Below, in pieces: positions 1,600 to 51,083 of a stretch of 64,000 nt of DNA. Below the pieces are notes generated by a model. It had not been told where the DNA came from, ran no database searches, and saw nothing but the letters and a program-made list of their open reading frames with translations. Source of the stretch: an uncultured Candidatus Saccharibacteria bacterium (GTDB taxonomy: Bacteria > Patescibacteriota > Minisyncoccia > Phycocordibacterales > CAIZLB01); NCBI GenBank assembly GCA_964607805.1, contig CAZSLF010000004.1, positions 7,477-71,476 of the forward strand, in the 5' to 3' direction. A program made the position numbers and the translations under genes. Numbering within the stretch: position 1 is the first letter of the stretch; the number at the start of each line of letters is the position of its first letter.

Positions 1600-2997
1600 A
1601 TGCACCTTCTCTTGATTAGTCATAATAAAAACATATTTAAAGAAGATGACCCTGCACATAAAGAATTTCTGGCTTGCTCAAAGTTAATTGATCAATTACA
1701 TATTATTGTTTTTACAGATAAAAAAACGGACTCAAATCTGCAGCCAAAAAATATTGAAAACAAGCTTTTCATTTACCCAACTAATTCAAAAAATCGCCTG
1801 GCGTACTATTCTGACGCTTTAAAAGTTGCCAAGTCTCAGCTTGTAATTAAATTTAAATTTCCAATTGATTTGATTAGTTGTGAAGACCTTTATCTATGCG
1901 CACTTGTTGCTTACGCTATTGCCAAAAAGTATAAAAGAAATTTTATTATAAATATTTATACTAATATTTTCTCACCGGACCTCGAGGAGGGCTTTTTCAA
2001 AAAGATTGTTATGCATGATTGGTATAATTTTATTTTCAGGCGAGCGACAGGTATTAGAGTCTTATCTCAATTAGTAGGGGAAGTTTTGTATTCAAGGGAT
2101 ATAAGGCTCCAAAACAAGATTTATATTTTGCCTTTCTTGGCCGAGATTGAAAAGCTGCAGAAATTACAGTCGACTGTAGATATTCATAAATTATATCCGA
2201 AGTTTAATATTATTTTCATTCACATAGCAAAACATATTCAGTTTAAAACTGTTTTGCGGTTGCGAAATATTATGAGATTGGTTAAAAAGAGATATCCTCT
2301 TGCTGGTCTAATTATTGTCGGAAAAGTGAAAAAGCGCTTTTGGCACCCTTGGTTTTATTCTCATATGCCAGAAAATATTGTTTTTGAGAAAATGAGCCTT
2401 GCAAATACTAATAGTGTAAGTGACAATAATACAAATAAAATTCTGTCATATTATAAGACAGCGAACGTATTTCTAGATACTGCATCTCAGAGTTACCCAG
2501 GTGAATCCCTGACTGAAGCGACTTTGGTAGGTTGTCCTGTTGTTGCTTCTAAAACTAAAGCGAGTGAGGAAGCAATTAGGGATGGGGAAAATGGTTTCAT
2601 CGCAGACCCTAGAAACCCACTGGTATTCTTCCAGAAAATTGTAAGTATTTTGGAGACTCCGGGATTACGCGAGTCTATGAGGTATGCAAAGTTTGATATT
2701 GGAGATTCACTTTATGGCCGAACAAACGAGGAATACTATGTACGGCTTGTTGATATATGGAATTTGTGCAAAACAAACGAAGAGAGTTTGCAAGCACCAA
2801 TTAAGGCGGCGGTAAGTATTGACGTTGCTAAACCAAAATTAAAGCCATATCCTATTATCACTATGAATTTAATTAAAAAAGTTCAAGAAAAGATGGAGCA
2901 AAAGAGGGCAGTAAAAGTTGCGGAGTTTACAGATGAAAGTGTAAATCTAGATTCTGTGAAGTCGACTATGGAGGAGGTATTGGCAGAAATTAAATAG
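1600..2997 (+). CDS. GT-B fold glycosyltransferase (family 1/4-like)
   Basis: 465-aa ORF. The C-terminal block ESLTEATLVGCPVVASKTKASEEAIRDGENGFIADP matches the GT1/GT4 E-x7-E nucleotide-sugar binding region. Confidence 0.7.
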   Translation: MHLLLISHNKNIFKEDDPAHKEFLACSKLIDQLHIIVFTDKKTDSNLQPKNIENKLFIYPTNSKNRLAYYSDALKVAKSQLVIKFKFPIDLISCEDLYLCALVAYAIAKKYKRNFIINIYTNIFSPDLEEGFFKKIVMHDWYNFIFRRATGIRVLSQLVGEVLYSRDIRLQNKIYILPFLAEIEKLQKLQSTVDIHKLYPKFNIIFIHIAKHIQFKTVLRLRNIMRLVKKRYPLAGLIIVGKVKKRFWHPWFYSHMPENIVFEKMSLANTNSVSDNNTNKILSYYKTANVFLDTASQSYPGESLTEATLVGCPVVASKTKASEEAIRDGENGFIADPRNPLVFFQKIVSILETPGLRESMRYAKFDIGDSLYGRTNEEYYVRLVDIWNLCKTNEESLQAPIKAAVSIDVAKPKLKPYPIITMNLIKKVQEKMEQKRAVKVAEFTDESVNLDSVKSTMEEVLAEIK

Positions 2998-4045
2998 AGG
3001 CACTTTTCATTCTATTGTAGATGATAAGTGAATAGTCTTGTTGTATTTTTTCAAGGTCTGCGAAATCTTTACCTTCAATCATGATACAGAAAGAGTAAGA
3101 ATCTTCATTGTTATTCAAATATACTAGGCCACACTCATGTAACTGTCTTAGCATAACTTTTTTTGTAATTGGATCTTCTACGGTTCGCTCTGCAAACTTA
3201 TGGGCAACCTTTAGAGATGGTGGTAAGTGCTTCATTGCACCATTTCTATAATCAACTTTCGTTAAAGTCTCAAGAATTTCATTTGAATATTCTGCTGTTA
3301 AGTAAGATGTATTATAAAGTAGTCTAAACAAGTTTGCATATGTTCTCGGCGTAACCAGAATTTCATCTGAACCATCAGACAATTTATACTTTATTCCAAC
3401 CGCGTTTAAAATTAAATCAAAGTATCCAGGAGGTAGATTTTCGTATAAAATTTGAGCAGATATATTATCTGAGTATATAACTGATCTGTCTATTAACTCT
3501 TTAATTGTGTAAGTTACGCCAAGCACGAGCTTGTCACTAACCTCAATGCTTTGATTATCGTTTAGAGACGCTCCTCCGTCATATTTTATATTTTTTGCGA
3601 GTATTTCAGGTTATATCTCAGCTTGCTTATAGCTTGCGATAATTAAAGGTAATTTTAATAAACTAGCTCCATAGAAGGATTCGGTCTCGTTTACACCAGC
3701 AAAATGCGTTGAGCGTAAATCTCTAACTAAGACTCCAAGTCGTGTTGCATTTCCACTGGAGATATTTTTTTCTGTAAGGGCCTCTAACTCAGTTTCTAGT
3801 CTAGCCAATTCTGTTTTTTTTCTGCTATTGTACTCACAGTTAATATTTTGTCGTATAAACTGTAGGTTTGACGAACAACCTTCAACTTCATCAGTTATAT
3901 GGTATCGACTTGAAAATATTGCAGATGTAAAAAACCATCCAATTACAAAGCCAACTATTAGTACTGAGGCAACTAAAAAACAAATTGACCTTTTATTTTC
4001 CTTAAAGTTTAGGGAAGGCTTTTGAAGTAAGTCTTTGTATTTCAC
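2990..4045 (-). pseudogene. Class A beta-lactamase-like serine hydrolase interrupted by one in-frame TAA
   Basis: ORFs 3611..4045 and 2990..3526 are in the same frame. The N-terminal part has a TM segment and an SxxK motif (GASLLK). The C-terminal part has an SDN motif (YSDNISAQIL). My translation of 3527-3610 is open (PEILAKNIKYDGGASLNDNQSIEVSDKL), so the only break is the TAA at 3611-3613. Confidence 0.65.
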
Positions 4046-4069: not shown

Positions 4070-4528
4070 TTATTTTTTTCTAGACTCTAAGCACTTGGGA
4101 CATTTGCAGCCGTAGGGTTTTATGTGGTGATTCCAATACTCTTTGCCATAATCATATGTGATTTCTTCTCCTTCTTTTATATTTCTTTTAGACATAATAT
4201 AAATTCTTCCTTTGCGAATTTCAGGCTCAGCGTTCGGACGACAAGAGTGATTTATATACCTTGCAATATTTGTCTTTATTGTGCCGTCAATTGTTGTTTT
4301 TGAATTGATTTCGAAGAGATATTTGCTATTACTTGTATATTCTTCTTCGGGTGAAATTACACGGCCAAAGTATTCAATAATACAAACACCTTTTGGAATA
4401 GGGCTAAAGGTGAAAAGACCAATTCCGGCGCTAGATCTCTTTGGTTTAACATCGAAGTCCCCAGGTTCAAATTTACTCTTCTTTTTTGTTGGCTTTGAGG
4501 GCTGCTTTGCTGTTTTCTTAGCTATCAT
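4070..4528 (-). CDS. SET-domain protein-lysine methyltransferase-like protein
   Basis: 152 aa. It has the SET signatures NHSCRPNAE and ITYDYG, a post-SET-like CKCPKC, and a Lys-rich N-terminal tail. Confidence 0.8.
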   Translation of the reverse strand: MIAKKTAKQPSKPTKKKSKFEPGDFDVKPKRSSAGIGLFTFSPIPKGVCIIEYFGRVISPEEEYTSNSKYLFEINSKTTIDGTIKTNIARYINHSCRPNAEPEIRKGRIYIMSKRNIKEGEEITYDYGKEYWNHHIKPYGCKCPKCLESRKK

Positions 4529-8910: not shown

Positions 8911-9327
8911 ATGAATAAAAAGTTATATGTAGGTGGTTTGCCTTACGCAACTACTGAAGACGCATTACGAGCAGCATTTTCACAGGCAGGTACTGTGGAC
9001 GCAGCTCAGATTATTATGGACAAGATGACAGGCCGATCAAAAGGTTTCGGATTCGTAGAAATGTCAACAGATGAGGAAGCTCAGGCTGCTATTGATATGT
9101 ATCACGGAAAGGATTTTGAAGGACGAACTCTTACTGTAAACGTAGCTCGACCAAAGGAAGAAGGCGCACCGCGACGATCTTTCGGAGGTGGAGGTAACCG
9201 TGGAGGTGGAGGCTTCGGTGGTGGCCGTGGAGGCGACCGAGGTGGATTCGGAGGTGGTGATCGTGGCGGCCGAGATTTCGGTGGCAACGGTGGCGGAGGC
9301 GACTTCGGTGGCCGACGTTCTTGGTAA
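8911..9327 (+). CDS. RRM-type RNA-binding protein with Gly/Arg-rich tail
   Basis: RNP-2 (LYVGGL) and RNP-1 (KGFGFVEM) motifs, followed by about 50 aa of RGG/GGF repeats. Confidence 0.9.
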   Translation: MNKKLYVGGLPYATTEDALRAAFSQAGTVDAAQIIMDKMTGRSKGFGFVEMSTDEEAQAAIDMYHGKDFEGRTLTVNVARPKEEGAPRRSFGGGGNRGGGGFGGGRGGDRGGFGGGDRGGRDFGGNGGGGDFGGRRSW

Positions 9328-38221: not shown

Positions 38222-38321
38222 TTTAGCAAGGTTAAGAGCAAATATGGGCGGATCTTATAATTTAGCGCGAAACTTTAAAAACTCTCGGATTTTTCTAACT
38301 AAAGTGCTAAAATAAGTAGAC

Positions 38322-40040
38322 ATGAATACGCCTAAAGGACGGATTAGATTTTTATCAATTTGTATTTTGCTTGTGGCAATGGTTTTAGTAGCAAAATTAT
38401 ATTCCGTTCAAATAATTCATGGCGGAGATTTTGCTGAGCGTGCTGACAGACAATATCAAAGGCCAAGCGGAAATATTTTTAGTCGTGGAACAATATATTT
38501 TACTGAAAAAGGTGGTAACTTTATCTCTGCAGCCACAGTAAAAACTGGTTTTGTTCTTTCAATCAATCCGAAACTTGTTCAAAAAGCGGGTGTTGAGGTT
38601 GTATATGAAAAACTGAAAGAAAAAGTGCCCGATATCACATATGAAGATTTTGCTGCAAAAGCAAATAAGCAGGACGATACATATGAAGAGCTTAAAAAGA
38701 AGGTTGATGAAAAGTTGGGAACTGAAATTGCAGCTCTAAAAATTCCTGGAGTAAGTCTGTATAAGGATAAGTGGCGATACTATCCTGGAGGATCTCTCGC
38801 ATCTCACTCTTTAGGCCTTATGGGATTTGATAAAGATGATAATTTCGCAGGGAGATACGGTTTGGAGCGAAGTTTCGAAGAAACCTTGGGTCGTGATGCT
38901 GAAAGTGTCTATGTGAATTTTTTCGCTGAGCTGTTTTCAAATATTAAGAAGACTGTTGTTAATGGCGAAAAGCTAGAAGGCGACATAGTCACTACAATTG
39001 AACCAGACACACAACAATATATAGAGCGTATGCTTGAGCAAATTAGGAACACATATAGTTCTGAAAGTGCTGGGGCGATAATTGTTGATCCATTGACCGG
39101 ACAAATTGTCGCTATGGCCATGGATCCAAATTTTGATGCAAATAATTTAAAGGAGGTTAAGGATCCAGCCATTTTCTCAAATAATTTAGTTGAAAGTGTA
39201 TATGAAATGGGTTCCGTAGTTAAACCCCTAACCATGGCTGTTGGAATTGACACAGGAAAAGTAACAGCAAACACTGTATACAACGACAAAGGATCAGTGA
39301 CACTAAACAACAAGACAATGTATAACTTCGACAAAAAAGGTCGAGGAGATATCACACTTCAATATGCTCTTTCAAAATCTCTAAACACTGGTTTTGTTCA
39401 TGTTGCGCGTACTGTTGGCAATGAACAATTCGGAAAATACTTCTTGGACTTTGGAATAGGAGAAAAGACAGGTATTGATTTGCCAAATGAAGCATCTGGT
39501 CTTGTCAAAAACTTAAGTACAAATCGAGATGTAGAATATGCGACAGCCTCTTTCGGACAAGGAATTGCTATGACACCTCTTGAACTAGTTCGTGCCTACT
39601 CCGCGATCGCAAACCAACAAGGAAAATTAGTTTCGCCATATGTTGTAAAGCAAATTAATTATCGAATTGGCACAACAAAAAAGATTGAAAAAGATTTGGG
39701 CAAACAAGTGATAAAACCTGAGACTGCGCGAGCGGTTACGGATATGATGGTTTATAACGTGGACAATTCACTTCTAGATGGCAATGCTAAAAACGAAAGA
39801 TATGCAGTTGCCGCAAAGACAGGAACTGCTCAGATGGCTTTGAAGGAGGGGGGATATTCGGAGGATAAATATTTGCACTCATTCGTAGGGTTCTTACCCG
39901 CATATAATCCGAAATTCTTGGTATTTATTTACACAGTGAATCCAAGAGGGGTTAGCTATGCATCGGAGACCTTGGCGAAGCCATTTATCGAGCTAACAAA
40001 GTTTTTGATCAATCACTTTGAGTTGCCGCCGGATAGATAG
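38322..40040 (+). CDS. ftsI: Division transpeptidase FtsI (PBP3-like)
   Basis: N-terminal TM, SxxK (GSVVKP), SxN (SKSLN) and KTGTA motifs, in dcw context. Confidence 0.9.
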   Translation: MNTPKGRIRFLSICILLVAMVLVAKLYSVQIIHGGDFAERADRQYQRPSGNIFSRGTIYFTEKGGNFISAATVKTGFVLSINPKLVQKAGVEVVYEKLKEKVPDITYEDFAAKANKQDDTYEELKKKVDEKLGTEIAALKIPGVSLYKDKWRYYPGGSLASHSLGLMGFDKDDNFAGRYGLERSFEETLGRDAESVYVNFFAELFSNIKKTVVNGEKLEGDIVTTIEPDTQQYIERMLEQIRNTYSSESAGAIIVDPLTGQIVAMAMDPNFDANNLKEVKDPAIFSNNLVESVYEMGSVVKPLTMAVGIDTGKVTANTVYNDKGSVTLNNKTMYNFDKKGRGDITLQYALSKSLNTGFVHVARTVGNEQFGKYFLDFGIGEKTGIDLPNEASGLVKNLSTNRDVEYATASFGQGIAMTPLELVRAYSAIANQQGKLVSPYVVKQINYRIGTTKKIEKDLGKQVIKPETARAVTDMMVYNVDNSLLDGNAKNERYAVAAKTGTAQMALKEGGYSEDKYLHSFVGFLPAYNPKFLVFIYTVNPRGVSYASETLAKPFIELTKFLINHFELPPDR

Positions 40041-40200
40041 TTGAATAATGGTCAATGGGAAATTAAAAAACCGCTCTTGACGGAGTTGTTTTTGCATTTA
40101 TGAATGCTAAATTCATAAATATTTTATGGAAAGTTATCAAAAATTTAATGTCAGGTGAGTAATATTACATCGAACATAAACAGTGGTTAGTTTATGTTGT

Positions 40201-40269
40201 TGGCACGCCAGTGGTTGGAGCTTTGAGCTTACCATTCAAGGCTTGCGGGTTCGATTCCCGTCGTGTCCA
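40201..40269 (+). tRNA. Atypical D-arm-less tRNA-like gene (TAC at the anticodon position, G3:U70)
   Basis: Canonical T-arm GCGGG-TTCGATT-CCCGT. The acceptor TGGCACG/CGTGTCC has 6 pairs including G3:T70 and a 1:72 mismatch. The 7-bp anticodon stem has loop CTTACCA. Only 37 nt lie between the acceptor and the T-arm, and no D-stem forms. Confidence 0.35.
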
Positions 40270-40328
40270 CATGTATATTTACAGGTAAATACCTTGACAC
40301 TAATTTAAATTATAATATTATTGAAATT

Positions 40329-40371
40329 GGTAAGCTCAAGGCTCCTAAACCGCACGTAACTGTGCGGTTTT
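40329..40371 (+). ncRNA. Candidate small RNA antisense to the tRNA-like anticodon arm
   Basis: TTGACA (40294-40299), 16 nt, then TATTAT (40316-40321) predicts a TSS near 40329. ggtaagctcaaggctcc (40329-40345) is the reverse complement of 40217-40233 with one G:U position. The terminator hairpin at 40347-40371 follows immediately. Confidence 0.3.
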
Positions 40372-40425
40372 GGCGTTTAAGAGATACATGGTAAAGCGAC
40401 GAAAGAAGAGGAGGTTTTCTTATTT

Positions 40426-41625
40426 CTATTTATAAACTTCCAAAGTTTTCTCAACCATATTCTCTACAGAAAACTCTTTACTCACTCGCGCACATGCAGC
40501 ATCCGCATATTTATTAGCTAATTCCGGATTATCAATATAATTATAAATTGCATCTTCAATTGCTTTTGGATTTTGGCTTGGAATTAGTTTTCCTTCCAAG
40601 TTAGTTTCGATAATTTCGGGAATACCGCCGACGTTTGAGGCGATTATTGGAAGATTTGCAAAAGCTGCTTCAATAACCGCATAGCTTAGACCTTCAGAAA
40701 GAGAAGGGAAGAGATATAAATCAAAGGCCTTCAGATAATTAGAAGCATCAAGAATACTTCCAACTAAAAATACATGTGATTCAAGGCTAAGTCTTTTTAT
40801 TTCAGCATTTAGAAAATGTCGAATATCACCATCGCCGATAATTACGTATATGAAATTTAGCTCGGGTCGGTTTTTCAAAATCTGCGCAAAAGCTTCAAGT
40901 GCGAACACGTGACCTTTTATAGGGTGGAGCTCGCCAACACTTCCAATCCAAATTGTATTCGCAGATTTTTTGGAAGTTTCTGAAATTGCTTCGAAAATTG
41001 CAGGTGTAGTATGTGAAATTTTTTCACGTGCCTCTTCTTTTGTTAAGAAGTTTGGCGAATGAATGCCATTTCTAATAACAGAAAATTTATTTTTATTTAT
41101 TGACCAATCTTTAATTTGATTTATCATGTTCTCTGACACACCAATAATCTTGTGAGCTGAAAGCATGGTGATCCAGTACAAAAATTTGATTATGGATTTA
41201 GATGCATAGGATCTGTCCTCATTGAAAGCCCAGCCATGGGCTGTGAAAATTATCTTTTTTACGCCTAGCGCACGGCCAATCACAGAGCCGAGGCCACTAA
41301 TCTTTGTACTGTTTAAGTGTAAAATATCTGGCTTTTCTTTTCGAATGATTTCGAAGGTGTCTATCAGGGCGAGAAGGTCATTTTTAAAACTAATATCACG
41401 CTCTAAACCGTTTACCTCAATAACATGAATACCTTTTTCTCGAAGCCGAGTAGCTAGGGGGCCGTCGCCGCCGAGCGCAACCTTCACTTCATATTTGTCT
41501 TTTGGCAGACTTGTGGCCAAATCAAATACATATTTTTGAGCACCACCCCAGTTGGACTTGGTTATTAGATAGAGGACTTTTTGCTTTTTTTTACCAGTTA
41601 GTGCTTGATTTTCAGCTTCTGTCAT
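40426..41625 (-). CDS. Family 4 (GT-B) glycosyltransferase
   Basis: 399 aa. EGLSYAVIEAAFANLPIIASNVGGIPEII matches the GT4 EX7E region. Confidence 0.85.
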   Translation of the reverse strand: MTEAENQALTGKKKQKVLYLITKSNWGGAQKYVFDLATSLPKDKYEVKVALGGDGPLATRLREKGIHVIEVNGLERDISFKNDLLALIDTFEIIRKEKPDILHLNSTKISGLGSVIGRALGVKKIIFTAHGWAFNEDRSYASKSIIKFLYWITMLSAHKIIGVSENMINQIKDWSINKNKFSVIRNGIHSPNFLTKEEAREKISHTTPAIFEAISETSKKSANTIWIGSVGELHPIKGHVFALEAFAQILKNRPELNFIYVIIGDGDIRHFLNAEIKRLSLESHVFLVGSILDASNYLKAFDLYLFPSLSEGLSYAVIEAAFANLPIIASNVGGIPEIIETNLEGKLIPSQNPKAIEDAIYNYIDNPELANKYADAACARVSKEFSVENMVEKTLEVYK

Positions 41626-46087: not shown

Positions 46088-46159
46088 GGCCCTATCGTCT
46101 AACGGTTAGGACGAAGCGTTCTCAATGCTTAAATCAGAGTTCGATTCTCTGTAGGGTCA
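46088..46159 (+). tRNA. tRNA-Glu (anticodon CTC), CCA not encoded
   Basis: Hand-folded cloverleaf. Acceptor GGCCCTA/TAGGGTC, D-arm GTC-TAACGGTTAG-GAC, anticodon arm AAGCG-TTCTCAA-TGCTT, T-arm CAGAG-TTCGATT-CTCTG, discriminator A. Confidence 0.9.
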
Positions 46160-46188
46160 CAGCGGGAGCAAACGGAGTGCAGCGACAA

Positions 46189-46237
46189 GCTGTGACCCTA
46201 AGCAAGCAAACTGCTTTGCTTGCGTCAGAGAATCGAA
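46189..46237 (+). other. Antisense copy of the tRNA-Glu 3' end, split by a 25-nt insert containing a 9-bp hairpin
   Basis: gctgtgacccta (46189-46200) and cagagaatcgaa (46226-46237) together are the exact reverse complement of 46140-46163. The insert at 46201-46225 contains the 9-bp hairpin gcaagcaaa-ctgc-tttgcttgc. Confidence 0.85.
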
Positions 46238-46307
46238 AAGCTTTTCTATGTTTTGAGAATCTTTGATTCGATAAAACAAGAAAAGGTGTACAGCCCCTGT
46301 AAGGGGA

Positions 46308-46327
46308 GATTCTCTGTAGGGTCACCA
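46308..46327 (+). repeat. Second sense copy of the tRNA-Glu 3' end, carrying CCA
   Basis: gattctctgtagggtcac (46308-46325) is identical to 46143-46160. Here it continues as ..TCACCA. Confidence 0.9.
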
Positions 46328-46353: not shown

Positions 46354-47166
46354 ATGCCGAACATAAAATATAAAACAGCTCTAGAAAGATTAATTAATAA
46401 TTTTAAGAATGACTTTTTGGGTTTTTCAAGAGAACAGTATACTTCTGATGGTAAACTTATACATCCAGGTGAATTTGGAGCATCAAGAGAGATTATTTCT
46501 AAAAAATTTATTGAAGACGTAGTTCCTATTTCCAAAAAAATTATAACTAAGGGATTTATTTTAAACTCAAATAACGAAACAACCACTGAGCAAGATTTAA
46601 TTATTTACAGTACTAATGATACACCTGTTCTTACTTTAGAAAATACAAGCTTTCTTCCGGTCGAAACAGTAGTTTCAGTGGGACAGGTAAAGTCAGTGAT
46701 ACAGTCAAAAAAAGATCTTAAAAAAATATTAGATAATTTAGTTAAAGTAAAAATGGTTAGAGATAATATGGGACACAGCTCAGTAATTTGGAGGAATCAT
46801 GAGCTATTTAACGGTAGCTATGGGTACTATAAAGATAATGCTTTTGATCAGGTTTTTACATTCGTTATTTGTGAAAAACTTAATTTTACTATTACACCAG
46901 ATGAAATAGATAAGTTGTATGATAGCGGCACTAAGGAATATTTAAAACATAATTTAATTTTAGACATAAGTAACGGTTTGTACGGTTATCAAATTAAAGA
47001 AGGGGATCCTTTTTTAGCGATACCATATACTATACACGGAAATAGTACACCAATACTCGTTGGTACCGAGAACGAATGGCACTTTAAACAATTTTTGACC
47101 AATATACACATTCATACTTCATCGAATACAGTTTTTCATCCAAATATGGGTAAATACATAAATTAG
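46354..47166 (+). CDS. DUF6602-like protein with restriction-endonuclease (PD-(D/E)xK)-type motif pattern
   Basis: 270 aa, AT-rich. GEFGASREIISKKFIEDVVP ... TEQDLIIYS ... LPVETVVSVGQVKS follows the G-x-x-RE / Q-D-hhh-Y / E-x-hhh-(E/Q)-V-K pattern that I recall for DUF6602. Confidence 0.6.
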   Translation: MPNIKYKTALERLINNFKNDFLGFSREQYTSDGKLIHPGEFGASREIISKKFIEDVVPISKKIITKGFILNSNNETTTEQDLIIYSTNDTPVLTLENTSFLPVETVVSVGQVKSVIQSKKDLKKILDNLVKVKMVRDNMGHSSVIWRNHELFNGSYGYYKDNAFDQVFTFVICEKLNFTITPDEIDKLYDSGTKEYLKHNLILDISNGLYGYQIKEGDPFLAIPYTIHGNSTPILVGTENEWHFKQFLTNIHIHTSSNTVFHPNMGKYIN

Positions 47167-47356
47167 ATAGTCGCACAAGAATGGTTGTTGTGATAAGGAA
47201 AAAATATTAGAAATGATCTAACAGGATAAGGTACCAATAAGTTCTATCTCGAGAAGGCTCACTAGAGAGTAAAATTCAAACTGCTTTGAATTATCCGTGA
47301 CCACAATTTAAACCCCTGTATTCATTAATTTATACAAAAAGTGCTAAAATGAATTT

Positions 47357-47938
47357 ATGGAAATTAAATTTCTCCTAGGAATTATCTCTACAGCAATTGC
47401 AGTCATTTGTTTCATTCCATACATAAAAGATATTCTTCGAAGGAAGACTGAGCCCCACACCTATTCTTGGCTCATATGGACAATACTTCAAACAGTAGGA
47501 GTAATGGCCCAGTTGAAAGAAGGGGCAGGTTACGGTGCATGGGCTTTAGGTGTGGGTGCATTATTCTGCTTCACTATATTCTTATTCTCCTTTAAATACG
47601 GAACAAAAAATATTTCAAAGTTTGATTTACTTTGCTTGATTGCCTCACTGTGCGCAATTGCAATTTATCTTTTTATAGAAAATCCTGTTTATGCAATTGT
47701 CGCAGTAGCACTTATCGATTTTGTTGGTTTCTTACCAACATTTAGAAAAGGATTTGAGGAACCGTTTACAGAAACAGTGAGCACATTCATTTTGAGTGCT
47801 ATGGCAAATGTTTTAAGTATTCTAGCACTTCAAAACTATACGGTTACAACTGTACTTTATATAGCAACCCTTTTCTTTACTAACTCTTCTTTTGCAACCA
47901 TGATCTTGGTTCGTAGAAAGTTTTTGCGAAAGAAGTAA
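47357..47938 (+). CDS. PQ-loop-like 6-TM membrane protein (paralog 1 of 3)
   Basis: 193 aa. The N-terminal FIPYIKDILRRKTEPHTYSW resembles a PQ-loop motif. Paralogs lie at 53080 and 53824. Confidence 0.6.
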   Translation: MEIKFLLGIISTAIAVICFIPYIKDILRRKTEPHTYSWLIWTILQTVGVMAQLKEGAGYGAWALGVGALFCFTIFLFSFKYGTKNISKFDLLCLIASLCAIAIYLFIENPVYAIVAVALIDFVGFLPTFRKGFEEPFTETVSTFILSAMANVLSILALQNYTVTTVLYIATLFFTNSSFATMILVRRKFLRKK

Positions 47939-48064
47939 TTTAGAGATTATTAAAAAAACCCAACCCCTTGACTTTTACAACCAAGTGTTGTATCTTATTT
48001 CCGCTGATCAGGAATGCACTAGGCCCAGTAAGCCTTAGCAACACCCCTGGCAGCAAACGCAGAC

Positions 48065-48742
48065 ATGTCCATTAACATACTACTCGACGAACAAAAGCTC
48101 CGGGAAGCCCCGGGGTTCAGTGATACTACTCGAACAGACGGTGGCGGCGGGATGATACTTGATAATACTCGTATTCCTGTCTCAGTCGACAACCTTGGCC
48201 GAATTTATATTACACTCAGCGATCACGCGAGCTTGGCCCCTTCGATCGAACCTTTTGTTACTGAGGTTTCCTTTTTTGTGTATGTTTCCGCTCAGCGGAC
48301 GCATCGTGAACTGGGTATCTATCGCCATGCAAGTGCAGAAGGCGAGGTTGATCTCCAAGAGGGAAGAGACAGTACTCAGTACTGGATCAAAGTAAGTGCC
48401 AAGAAGCTTGAGGATGCTCGTGAGCTGGTCAGACTATTTAAGATCGGCTCGATTCGTCCCGCCGACAGCTTCGAAGGGAGGCAGCAAGGCGAATCGAAAG
48501 AAGAGCTTGAAGCAAGACTTCGAACTGTTCTGGAAGAACTTGAGAGTTTGAAAGGGGAAAACGCTCTAAATGAGACTAACCTCGAGCATACAAGAGGCAT
48601 GCTGGATATAAGCCTTGACCGTGTTCGTGAGGTTTTCAAATTATCGGCAGCGCTCAGCAATCGACGTCTCAAGTGGCCCTGGTGTTCCAAACAAAAAGTT
48701 GCGTTGCTAATCAACTGTGCACTTAACAGAGAAGGTAAGTAG
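48065..48742 (+). CDS. Hypothetical protein with C-terminal coiled-coil
   Basis: 225-aa G+C-richer ORF with a TTGACT-type promoter about 90 nt upstream. The terminator cgacccaagcc..ggcttgggtttttttt lies at about 48783-48812. Confidence 0.6.
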   Translation: MSINILLDEQKLREAPGFSDTTRTDGGGGMILDNTRIPVSVDNLGRIYITLSDHASLAPSIEPFVTEVSFFVYVSAQRTHRELGIYRHASAEGEVDLQEGRDSTQYWIKVSAKKLEDARELVRLFKIGSIRPADSFEGRQQGESKEELEARLRTVLEELESLKGENALNETNLEHTRGMLDISLDRVREVFKLSAALSNRRLKWPWCSKQKVALLINCALNREGK

Positions 48743-48889
48743 CTAGTCTACAGTTTAGTTCCAAGAGTTTATTCTTTAAACTCCGACCCAAGCCATCCGG
48801 CTTGGGTTTTTTTTATTTAAGCCAAATTTTTGGTGAATGGTTGTTTGCACCCATTTGCCCACACATCTTTTATATAAGATAATACCCAC

Positions 48890-49705
48890 ATGAACAAATC
48901 TTTTCTTAAAACTCTCGCAATCTCACTTTTGCTATTGAGCATTTTTATCGGAAACACAGCGGACGCTTGCAGAGTTAAATCGTATCCATGGTTCATAACT
49001 AATACAACTATTGATACGAGTACATTACCTCCTGGTATAACTTTTGTAAGTCACACTCTAAATCATGAATATGGACCAGATGGAAAATTTACAAGCACTA
49101 CAACTACACCATTTTATCTTCTACGACCAGAATCTGATAGAAAAAATGAAGCAGCAATTATTGACGGAGGTTACACTGAATTACCAGCACATGAAATACC
49201 ATTGTATAAATTAGTGGGAGGTGATCAATATTATTGGGATGGAGAAGATGGATGGAGTACGTATTACTGGTATGGAACAACTTCAAAGAAAGAGATGGAT
49301 CTTGTACTTAGAAATTCTGATGTAGGAATTAAGAATAAATTTGGAGGAAAACGACCAAAAAATGTAGAAGTTCCCGAACCTCATGATATTTCTTTTAAAG
49401 CGTACTATGGCTCCGAACCAATTTATATTAAGGGTAGGATGGAATATGCTTTAAACGAGGGTTTTTACCCAACAAATCCAAATGGTTGTAATAATATTTA
49501 CGGATCTTTGACTGGTTTGATAGTTGGATTAGGAGTTCAATTGTTGATAATCGGAGCAATCATATTTAGTCCAATTTTATTGTATAAGTTCTTAAGAAAA
49601 AGAATTTCAAGTGCGGTTACATCAAAAATAATAGTTGCAATTTATTTATTGTTAGTAATAGTTATCGTCTACGGTTTATTGCATTTATTCGGGTTTGTAT
49701 ATTAG
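48890..49705 (+). CDS. Secreted/membrane-anchored hypothetical protein
   Basis: Signal-peptide-like N-terminus (LLLLSIFIGNTADAC) and two C-terminal TM helices. Confidence 0.6.
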   Translation: MNKSFLKTLAISLLLLSIFIGNTADACRVKSYPWFITNTTIDTSTLPPGITFVSHTLNHEYGPDGKFTSTTTTPFYLLRPESDRKNEAAIIDGGYTELPAHEIPLYKLVGGDQYYWDGEDGWSTYYWYGTTSKKEMDLVLRNSDVGIKNKFGGKRPKNVEVPEPHDISFKAYYGSEPIYIKGRMEYALNEGFYPTNPNGCNNIYGSLTGLIVGLGVQLLIIGAIIFSPILLYKFLRKRISSAVTSKIIVAIYLLLVIVIVYGLLHLFGFVY

Positions 49706-49840
49706 ATGAAACTCTTATCACTAAAATTGCAAAAATGAGAGTAAAAGAATTGAAGGAGATGGATGCAAAGTGGATGTAATGAAAAACCCGCCAGAACCTA
49801 AGTTCTGGCGGCGTTCGTTTTCGGCTAGTGTTAACTAGCG

Positions 49841-50338
49841 TCAGGGGTCAGGAAGATCATAGTCACCCCTGTTGCGGCACATCCGCTCTGCCTCTCTCTC
49901 AGCCCTTTCACTTGAATAAAATGCATATGATGAAAGAGGTTGGTTTGAGTCTGGATGCAAAATACTCGCATCCTTAATATCATGGCGTCTCGCAGCTTCA
50001 TGCTCTATAGCTTCCTCTTCATCTTGGAGACTTTTTATTAGCTTTTCTTTCTTTCGCCCCAAGGTAGCGGCCCTCTTCACACCTATTAAAACTTGTTTGA
50101 AGTACTCTTGAGCGAGGGCGACTTGGTAGGGTTCTAGGGCGGCCTTTCCCTCATTTCTCCTATTTTCCTTTATTATCTCTGCCAGGCATGCGGCTTTTTT
50201 TGCTTTGAGAACCGCCCCTCTGTTCTTAAAGCGTTTTTCCACGACACGTAAATCACGCTGTGCTTTATCGATCATATCTATTGTGATGTAGATCTTAAAA
50301 TCGATTTCAGGCCCATCTTCACCTTTCTTCATTTTCAT
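49841..50338 (-). CDS. Hypothetical highly charged helical protein
   Basis: I used the ATG at 50338 (MKMKKGEDG...). The terminator aaaaacccgccagaac..gttctggcgg lies at about 49783-49812. Confidence 0.5.
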   Translation of the reverse strand: MKMKKGEDGPEIDFKIYITIDMIDKAQRDLRVVEKRFKNRGAVLKAKKAACLAEIIKENRRNEGKAALEPYQVALAQEYFKQVLIGVKRAATLGRKKEKLIKSLQDEEEAIEHEAARRHDIKDASILHPDSNQPLSSYAFYSSERAEREAERMCRNRGDYDLPDP

Positions 50339-50522
50339 AACAAATCGAGGTTGAAACAAACTAGTAGGGAGCTGTCACCATGCAAAAAGCACGATGTTTC
50401 CGAAATATAGAGTACAACACGTAGATGCTAGTCGTCAAATTTAACAAAAAAAAGAGACGAAATAAAAAGCCCTGCTGTTCACGCTTTTTAGGCGTTACTT
50501 AGCAGGGCTTCGAGATTAGGTC

Positions 50523-51083
50523 TTAGAGGAGACCCCATCGTTGGTGTCGGCTTTCGGCAAAGCGGATTTCAGCTTTATCTCGGTGGATAAAAATCTCCAC
50601 CGTGAGACCGTCGTCTGTCTTGCACAGCTCCACCCATGTCCCTTCTCGAGTTTCTTCGGGAAGAATAAGATATCCGACAGGTACTCCGGGAAAAAAAGTT
50701 TCTCCCTCGGGGTTTTTTCCAGGCTGATACAAGGTTTTGGTAAGAAGGTAACGGCCTGGACCGATTCCTGGCAGCCATCGAGAGATAGTGATATCTCCCC
50801 CGAAGCCCCCGGCAGAACCGGAGAATTTTAAAATAAATTTCTCCGGTTCTCCGCTGCTTACCGTTCGGCTGGCATAATTCTGTGTCGAAGTATCACCGGC
50901 ACTGCCAGCAATACTAGCCGATTGATGACCAAGGGAGTAGAACCCTACTTCATTTTTCCAGTTGCACTTGGACAGATTGTTGTTCGTGATCATTGGATGG
51001 TAATATTTTAGGTTGATTTGTTTGGAAAGATTCTCTTTCAGACAGTGCCTTTCGGCTATGCTGTTTTTAGGTCTACTTTCCAT
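50523..51083 (-). CDS. Hypothetical protein
   Basis: 186-aa ORF. The ATG at 51083 is the first one downstream of a consensus promoter. The terminator agccctgct..agcagggct lies at about 50469-50508. Confidence 0.55.
   Translation of the reverse strand: MESRPKNSIAERHCLKENLSKQINLKYYHPMITNNNLSKCNWKNEVGFYSLGHQSASIAGSAGDTSTQNYASRTVSSGEPEKFILKFSGSAGGFGGDITISRWLPGIGPGRYLLTKTLYQPGKNPEGETFFPGVPVGYLILPEETREGTWVELCKTDDGLTVEIFIHRDKAEIRFAESRHQRWGLL

Follow-up and report, generated by a model that had tools for sequence, protein, structure and literature searches.

Can an element that resembles a transfer RNA (tRNA) but lacks a D-arm, and that faces a short antisense transcription unit, be a working tRNA or one half of a regulatory pair, or is it the remains of a gene? 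This question is raised by the spacer between ftsI and a GT4 glycosyltransferase gene in a stretch of 64,000 nucleotides (nt) on contig CAZSLF010000004.1 of an uncultured Candidatus Saccharibacteria bacterium, hereafter the window. The original prediction, made from the letters alone, described here a D-arm-less tRNA-like gene and, downstream of it, a mini-transcript antisense to its anticodon arm, and offered two explanations, a decayed tRNA or a tRNA-like RNA paired with a dedicated antisense RNA. The explanation that we favour, and hold to be reasonably probable, is that a non-functional extra copy of tRNA-Val lies beside a separate, conserved mini-unit, which contains an inverted fragment of tRNA-Val and acts as ftsI terminator and probably as a small RNA gene. 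Both are of known kinds, namely a tRNA pseudogene and a small RNA/terminator unit; what is unusual is the origin of the unit from an inverted tRNA fragment.

Derivation of the tRNA-like element

The element follows the plan of a tRNA. Its parts succeed one another as the acceptor strand TGGCACG, C8C9, the D-loop AGTGGTTG, the 3' strand of the D-stem (GAGC), T26, the anticodon arm (40223-40239, TTGAG-CTTACCA-TTCAA, with TAC at 40230-40232), a variable loop of 5 nt (GGCTT), the T-arm, the 3' strand of the acceptor and A73. The T-arm (40245-40261, GCGGG-TTCGATT-CCCGT) is perfect and stacks on the acceptor, and it is canonical, as are the D-loop with its GAGC strand, the CTTACNA anticodon loop and the variable loop. 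The acceptor forms six pairs (40202-40207 with 40262-40267), including a G40203.T40266 wobble, plus a U1xC72 mismatch, as against a canonical stem of 7 base pairs (bp). The 5' strand of the D-stem is missing, and the T-arm follows the acceptor 5' strand after only 37 nt (40208-40244). On re-insertion of GCTC after CC as the 5' D-stem strand, a 74-nt tRNA-Val(tac) was called by standard ARAGORN; hence the element is a tRNA-Val(UAC) gene that has lost 4 nt and acquired a few point changes, its further lesions being U1xC72, a change of C70 to U (giving G3.U70), C8C9 with the loss of U8, and C37.

A clear derivation from a tRNA is here combined with disabling lesions, and the element shows no conservation at the orthologous position and no homologues in the collections searched, which places it among tRNA pseudogenes. 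The first explanation of the original prediction, a decayed tRNA, is thus borne out by a deletion and point changes in a recognisable tRNA-Val(UAC) that is missing from the related loci. Its anticodon stem of 7 bp holds in part: an extended stem is possible, but the figure is not specific, as the stem counts 5 bp when read canonically and reaches 9-10 bp on extension.

Were the element a functional D-arm-less tRNA or minihelix, RNase P would process it, a CCA tail would be added and it would be charged with alanine (through G3:U70) or with valine (through A35/C36/A73); it would then have a role in translation or donate amino acids for cell-envelope synthesis near ftsI and the glycosyltransferases. 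Alanyl-tRNA synthetase charges minihelices bearing G3:U70, and the acceptor and T-arm of the element are intact and coaxial, with G3.U70 and A73. The wobble occupies position 3:70 only if the T40201xC40268 mismatch is taken as pair 1:72, counting back from the T-arm, and it is with this assignment that A40269 becomes the discriminator A73. We infer that the pair, in which the original prediction saw an alanine identity signal, is explained most simply by a C-to-T change during decay of the acceptor stem, beside the broken 1:72 pair.

The use of D-armless models, which had been proposed as a check, gave a mixed outcome. The metazoan-mitochondrial mode of ARAGORN draws the element as a tRNA with a D-replacement loop ('D-loop mtRNA-Val(tac)', 40202-40268), but the mode is unspecific and its call carries little weight, because 8 of its 10 calls in 64 kb, all those besides the element and the true tRNA-Glu, overlap long open reading frames (ORFs). 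No call was made in bacterial mode, even at -ps, the four-arm cloverleaf with a D-stem not being met. Likewise no Rfam family reached its gathering threshold; the tRNA model scored below the 14.1 bits of the clan winner, transfer-messenger RNA (tmRNA), against a gathering score of 29. Folded by itself, the element shows nothing remarkable (z = -1.3), and neither the sequence nor a promoter scan gave a recognisable promoter of its own. Further evidence against a working molecule comes from its mismatched 1:72 pair, lost U8 and C37, from its lack of conservation in any relative, and from the absence of a FemXAB-type transferase, SmpB or a special EF-Tu among the Pfam-scanned ORFs, which include nearly all of those in the window with at least 110 amino acids (this scope holds for all protein-family negatives given here). 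The relatives must have their tRNA-Val elsewhere, hence the element would be an extra copy. We therefore regard a functional tRNA as extremely improbable.

Conservation of the promoter-terminator unit

The part of the spacer most likely to matter is the unit of 87 bp downstream of the pseudo-tRNA, where a promoter and an intrinsic terminator of its own enclose a short non-coding stretch, with no plausible ORF between them. Promoter-like sequences with a match of at least 11/12 were found at six sites in 64 kb (2.9 expected), and as the other five are all intergenic and upstream of an ORF on the same strand, the promoter consensus is predictive in this genome. The terminator stem (AAACCGCAC/GTGCGGTTT, 40347-40355/40362-40370) is followed by TGGCGTTT, and its fold has an energy of -19.7 kcal/mol (z = -3.1). 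A 'strong' terminator, as it had been described, is somewhat generous: the hairpin and the U-tract are present, but a simple consensus scan was narrowly missed.

The conservation of the unit exceeds that of neighbouring sequence, as judged from one diverged relative only. This nearest relative was reached via FtsI cluster members at 90% identity or more and is represented by Logan contigs (loci L018, L019 and L020). Its FtsI is 96% identical in amino acids, ftsI 85.6% in nucleotides and 64% at third codon positions, GT4 85.7% and the spacer adjacent to the unit (40381-40425) 64%, as compared to 85 of 87 positions in the unit itself. The probability of two or fewer differences in 87 is 1.6e-4 at the divergence of ftsI and 3e-14 at that of third positions. 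In three samples of the relative, the TAG of ftsI is followed by TCATATA (7 nt) and then by TTGACA-ctaatttaaattataa-TATTAT-ttaaattGGTAA; the GT4-side contigs read GGTAAGCTTAAGGCTCC and then a terminator identical to that of the window, which is the only terminator after ftsI in this relative. In two further samples (L012, L023) the unit is identical to the window version. With such identity against ~86% in the flanking genes, a real mini-transcription unit, as originally predicted, is probable.

On comparison of the ftsI-GT4 region, which the original prediction had called for, the antisense 17-mer was found to be kept in the nearest relative with one change, the form common to both lineages being GGTAAGCT(C/T)AAGGCTCC, but there is no tRNA there. 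The spacer of the relative, joined from two contigs, is 134 nt long and without a tRNA-like element, and the missing block between ftsI and the promoter is visible within single contigs of three samples. An antisense RNA 'dedicated' to the tRNA-like RNA is not consistent with this arrangement, in which the unit stands 7 nt past the ftsI stop. As the relative has no pseudo-tRNA partner at the locus, the conserved role of the unit does not need the pseudo-tRNA.

Several points weigh against the favoured reading. The conservation of the unit rests on that one relative, so that recombination or recent transfer could mimic selection, and mraZ is also 98% identical in nucleotides between the two genomes. 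The two Logan contigs from which the relative's spacer was joined overlap by just 25 nt, and the terminator, as stated above, narrowly fails the consensus scan. The T-arm and acceptor are GC-rich and well paired within an AT-rich spacer, which would indicate that the copy is young or constrained. Finally, an intact tRNA-Val(UAC) elsewhere is an assumption, the view of the genome being limited to 64 kb.

Two other interpretations were considered and discarded. The two substitutions in the relative do not constitute a compensatory pair, since they are not compensatory in register. A small protein or type I toxin was rejected, as the short ORFs are unconserved, the block being missing from the relative.

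Inverted repeat and pairing potential

How the unit is related to the pseudo-tRNA can be seen from their complementarity. Positions 40217-40234 pair with 40328-40345 over 18 nt, of which one is mismatched (a G.U pair in RNA), far beyond chance, since 200 dinucleotide shuffles of the spacer gave repeats of at most 14 nt; in this respect too, every feature that the original prediction described is present. With a 2-nt bulge the repeat extends to 23 bp (40217-40239/40321-40345). RNAduplex gave -33.9 kcal/mol for the right arm with the pseudo-tRNA region, compared to a window-wide mean of -8.6 +/- 3.1. No other site in 64 kb comes near this value, making the pseudo-tRNA the only strong partner in silico, and no mRNA target of the 18-mer within the window rose above background. 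The reverse complement of 40205-40239, TTGAATGGTAAGCTCAAAGCTCC-AACCAC-TGGCGT, aligns to 40321-40376 with the terminator hairpin at the position of the D-loop, and this gapped alignment scores 39 against 13.2 +/- 2.2 in shuffles. Since the homology reaches promoter-proximal DNA and continues past the terminator, it points to duplication at the DNA level and not only to a selected seed.

These features could also be read as a working regulatory pair, in which the tRNA-like RNA, carried on the 3' untranslated region (UTR) of ftsI, would be the target or the decoy (sponge) of the ~50-nt antisense RNA and would tune the stability of the ftsI-operon mRNA or the availability of the small RNA. The complement of 18-23 nt starts about at the transcription start expected from the promoter, the duplex energy is unmatched in 64 kb, the unit is conserved, and the tRNA-antisense segments of a tRNA-Glu trailer (see below) are clearly selected in the same genome. 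However, the locus of the nearest relative keeps the unit but has no tRNA-like partner for it, no homologue of the block is found elsewhere, the homology exceeds the transcribed seed in the manner of a DNA duplication, and the pseudo-tRNA has no promoter of its own. We consider such a pair unlikely.

It is also conceivable that 40168-40380 forms one long structured RNA, either the 3' end of the ftsI mRNA in folded form or a molecule akin to Y RNAs, with the tRNA-like T-arm and small hairpins branching off a long closing helix. The region folds with -78.1 kcal/mol (z = -6.5), and its best Rfam match, which covers the T-arm, a hairpin and the D-like hairpin, is YrlA (20.6 bits, E = 0.11). This score is far under the gathering score of 69, the Ro-binding stem of the model is unmatched and no TROVE/Rsr gene was detected among the scanned ORFs; moreover a near-consensus promoter lies inside the supposed RNA, and its left half is missing in the relative. 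A single long RNA is, accordingly, highly unlikely.

Origin and history of the spacer

The two lineages differ by insertion or deletion of the block 40041-40292, the unit being the conserved part. The block is missing from L018/L019/L020, L011, L013, L014, L016 and L015 with L010, and nhmmer detected no homologue of it in 23 related loci (195 kb). The ftsI and GT4 genes overlap in L011 and L016 and are 14 nt apart in L014 and 70 nt in L013, while L015 with L010 has an unrelated spacer of ~325 nt, so that the lengths across the clade, including the ~134 nt of the nearest relative and the 385 nt of the window, range from overlap to 385 nt. In more distant relatives (L001-L004, L006-L008) tRNA-Glu with a conserved promoter occurs after ftsI, directly or one gene on. 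Outgroups have neither block nor unit. Two simplest histories are equally parsimonious: either both were gained and the block was then lost in the relative, or the unit came first and the block later. The former is favoured because the pseudo-tRNA and the unit share an origin. As the long spacer of the next-closest relative carries unrelated hairpin repeats, the ftsI/GT4 spacer is therefore a recurrent site for hairpin-rich insertions. In that relative (L015 5771-6008 and L010 3683-3798, reverse strand) a hairpin with the core AAATGCAACTCAGTTGCATTT occurs twice, and the assembly is interrupted at this repeat.

A history of insertions also brings into consideration a scar of mobile or rearranged DNA without any RNA function, in which the arms would be remnants of terminal inverted repeats, or the outcome of a template switch at a quasi-palindrome, with a tRNA-Val fragment, and the unit would have been exchanged recently. 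Across the clade the convergent genes are separated by a hypervariable spacer, both ends of the block carry a weak direct repeat of the terminator region (72% similarity between the hairpin at 40066-40093 and the downstream terminator region, alignment p ~0.016), breaks in the Logan contigs of independent samples fall within the unit or at its edge, and mraZ shows that a local identity of 98% is possible between the two genomes. On the other hand, no integrase, transposase or recombinase was found among the scanned window ORFs, and the window holds no second copy of the unit or, with up to three mismatches allowed, of the 3' 22 nt of the tRNA. Scans of viral contigs with element patterns gave no match for four of five patterns and a single match for the fifth, inside a coding region and read as chance; a scan of viral contigs with the terminator pattern gave none, and blastn against phages and plasmids returned T-arm-level matches only. 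The promoter consensus, as noted above, is predictive in this genome. We judge a functionless scar to be decidedly unlikely. Beyond mobile elements, a metagenome pattern scan for the D-armless junction gave no match, and searches of protein databases with translations of spurious ORFs across the element returned nothing.

Other arrangements of the locus were rejected. An island boundary or att site does not agree with GT4, Bac_transf and epimerase genes being ancestral in relatives without the element. In the case of an inverton, the repeats do flank the promoter, but the relative keeps the promoter with the right arm only, no recombinase was found, and the contig breaks are off the inner edges of the repeats. 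Group I intron-split tRNAs are reported for Patescibacteria (PMC13011429); here the exon is contiguous, only 4-6 nt are missing and no Rfam intron match was obtained.

Assembly breaks recur around the promoter. Window-type contigs of two samples (L012, L023) both start exactly at 40293, and contigs of the relative from several samples (L018-L022) have their end or their start within the promoter and overlap by 25 nt. These shared breaks suggest that the population is polymorphic upstream of the unit, or that the unit also occurs in a second sequence context.

Proposed mode of action and significance

Under the favoured reading of a dead tRNA-Val copy beside a conserved unit, the pseudo-tRNA would be transcribed only by read-through from ftsI, past the weak hairpin at 40066-40093, and the hairpin and U-tract of the unit would terminate the transcripts of the ftsI operon (mraZ-rsmH-ftsL-ftsI). 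The internal promoter probably yields an RNA of ~50 nt that has a free 5' 18-mer and a terminator in common with the ftsI mRNA; its start and end, any pairing in vivo and any regulatory outcome are inferred. The unit looks like an inverted partial copy of the 5' half of tRNA-Val, from the acceptor/D junction to the anticodon stem, and because of this origin the 5' 18 nt of the small RNA are antisense to the D/anticodon arm. In the strain of the window, read-through RNA containing the pseudo-tRNA could pair over up to 23 bp with the small RNA, or fold back on itself, and a duplex of this kind would be expected to favour double-strand-specific cleavage or to stop 3' exonucleases. As the relative has no such partner at its locus, the conserved role of the unit must lie in termination and/or in pairing with another RNA, for which genuine tRNA-Val or its precursor is an obvious candidate.

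An extension of this scheme would make the ~50-nt RNA an 'anti-tRNA' that pairs with the D/anticodon arm of genuine (pre-)tRNA-Val and controls its folding, maturation or availability, with the crippled copy as a titrating decoy. We hold this to be quite doubtful; if true, it would, together with the tRNA-Glu trailer, suggest tRNA-antisense RNAs as a regulatory theme in Patescibacteria.

The dead tRNA copy itself matters little, except in showing that G3:U70 and a D-arm-less cloverleaf can come from decay. More useful is the unit, which lies at the end of a cell-division operon (mraZ-ftsI), shows a conservation well above background and derives from an inverted tRNA fragment. If transcribed, it would join the very small number of candidate small regulatory RNAs in Patescibacteria, whose reduced genomes have few regulators, and would also be an example of a small RNA gene born from a tRNA.

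Comparison with known systems

Among known small RNAs, DapZ and MicL are said to be of the 3'-UTR type, with an internal promoter and a terminator common with the mRNA. The unit resembles them in having its promoter at or just past the end of the upstream gene, in reusing the mRNA terminator and in its predicted single-stranded 5' seed. Unlike them, its predicted seed is an inverted tRNA fragment, and its conservation is seen in two lineages only. 3'ETS-leuZ is reportedly a sponge derived from a tRNA precursor that pairs with RyhB and RybB, and it belongs to the conserved spacer of a functional tRNA operon; discussions of it are given in PMC6191717 and 10.1101/2021.04.25.441314. In the present locus, too, a tRNA-linked segment is predicted to base-pair with a small RNA encoded nearby or elsewhere; however, the paired segment is a dead tRNA body, missing from the nearest relative.

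With regard to the tRNA-like element, tRNA-Other of Bacillus cereus is expressed and weakly chargeable, and its deletion has a phenotype (PMC3399842). The two have in common a tRNA derivation and a structure off the cloverleaf, and neither is expected to work in translation, whereas the element described here is confined to one lineage and has lost specifically a 4-nt D-stem strand. D-arm-lacking mitochondrial tRNAs of Metazoa are sole, conserved copies with co-adapted factors such as a special EF-Tu (PMC4394434, PMC1636415). The element shares their cloverleaf with a D-replacement loop and fits the mitochondrial model of ARAGORN, but it is an unconserved extra copy in a bacterium.

The YrlA Y RNA is encoded beside the rsr (Ro60/TROVE) gene (PMC4201824; RF02553). 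It shares with the region studied here a T-arm and hairpins that mimic a tRNA, as well as a long closing stem; the match, at 20.6 versus 69 bits, covers model positions 23-88 of 114 only and leaves the Ro60 stem out. Membership in YrlA was rejected on this sub-threshold score, with no TROVE-domain protein detected among the scanned ORFs. Similarly, the element resembles the tRNA-like domain of tmRNA (RF00023) in G3.U70, A73, the T-arm, the missing D-stem and a long helix where the anticodon stem would be, but the score is 14.1 versus 47 bits and the alignment, across 72 nt, involves just the two ends of the model. A tmRNA, or two-piece tmRNA, was rejected: no mRNA-like domain, tag ORF or pseudoknots are present, a tmRNA search with ARAGORN was empty and SmpB is not among the ORFs scanned.

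The tRNA-Glu trailer

The original prediction cited a tRNA-Glu locus 6 kb away as a second tRNA-plus-antisense arrangement. The arrangement does exist and is under selection; the element, however, is a different one, without sequence similarity to that at 40.2 kb. In tRNA-Glu(CUC), C74 is followed by an insert of ~165 nt, bounded by exact 18-nt direct repeats GATTCTCTGTAGGGTCAC (window 46143-46327); the insert is found also in L001 (5826-6022), L003, L004 and L007, and L008 has an empty site. Its first two segments are antisense to the acceptor-3' strand and to the T-loop/T-stem-3' strand of the tRNA, with a hairpin between them. Across four genomes, 23 of 59 pairs show compensatory changes, and 94.5% of cells are paired as against 81.6% in shuffles; none of 500 shuffles reaches the observed value, and slid controls collapse. 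The antisense segments track the T-stem of each species, and the second copy of the repeat decays. No Rfam match was obtained, and the insert looks like an undescribed structured RNA or mini-insertion. As the trailer is under selection, pairing with tRNA antisense segments is a selected feature in this clade, which lends modest support to such pairing in general and does not show that the Val pair is functional. Given its strong covariation support, the trailer may be the more significant new RNA of the window.

From tRNA-Glu to yqeY/rmuC (46354-51083), the ORFs have no Pfam match, except for one DUF6602 protein (46354-47166). The ORFs after tRNA-Glu vary among related genomes, and the region looks like a variable island at tRNA-Glu.

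Features of the locus and other observations

The penicillin-binding protein (PBP)/FtsI gene (38322-40040), whose nearest relatives belong to Paceibacterota, Parcubacteria and 'Saccharibacteria' metagenome-assembled genomes, is the last of the mraZ-rsmH-ftsL-ftsI cluster. GT4 (40426-41625) lies downstream on the opposite strand, so that the two genes are convergent and 385 nt apart, and their spacer holds the pseudo-tRNA and the mini-unit. Beyond GT4 are a sugar transferase, an epimerase and tRNA-Glu(CUC) (46088-46160), the one tRNA called in the window by ARAGORN in bacterial mode. The features of the spacer are collected in Table 1.

Table 1. Features of the ftsI/GT4 spacer (positions in the window)
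Feature	Position	Strand	Remarks
Strain-lineage block: three hairpins and pseudo-tRNA	40041..40292		between ftsI stop and conserved promoter; ~250 bp
Weak terminator-like hairpin	40066..40093	+	directly 3' of ftsI; A-tract and U-tract around GCTC...GAGT; -9.4 kcal/mol, z = -1.7
Perfect 10-bp AT-rich hairpin	40096..40120		arms ATTTATGAAT/ATTCATAAAT
Perfect 9-bp hairpin with D-loop-like loop AGTGGTTA	40173..40198	+	arms 40173-40181/40190-40198
tRNA-Val(UAC) pseudogene	40201..40269	+	6 acceptor pairs, T-arm, no 5' D-stem strand; no CCA encoded
ACGCCA	40205..40210		complements TGGCGT (40371-40376) past the terminator hairpin; outer fold-back helix
Inverted-repeat left arm	40217..40239		3' D-stem strand, anticodon stem and loop of the pseudo-tRNA
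Small hairpin TATTTAC-AG-GTAAATA	40276..40291	+	near the palindrome centre; relative without it
Conserved unit: promoter, small RNA, terminator	40294..40380	+	85/87 identical in nearest relative; differences G40323T, C40337T
Near-consensus sigma-70-type promoter, TTGACA-16-TATTAT	40294..40321	+	11/12 match; 28/28 identical in relative
Inverted-repeat right arm	40321..40345		single-stranded 5' part of predicted small RNA from ~40328
Predicted ~50-nt RNA	40328..40378	+	18-nt 5' tail antisense to tRNA-Val D/anticodon arm, terminator, U-tract; predicted ends

Along the mraZ-ftsI cluster, divergence from the nearest relative is very uneven: mraZ is 98% identical in nucleotides, and the ftsL-ftsI spacer (38222-38321, 100 nt) is mostly missing there (75 nt gapped).

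Elsewhere in the window, two adjacent ORFs on the reverse strand (2990-4045), of 178 and 144 amino acids, correspond to the C-terminal and N-terminal parts of the Beta-lactamase2 family and look as if split by a frameshift or stop. A SET-domain protein (4070-4528, reverse strand) and a protein with RRM_1, a eukaryote-type RNA recognition motif (8911-9327, forward strand), are also encoded in this small genome of the Candidate Phyla Radiation (CPR).

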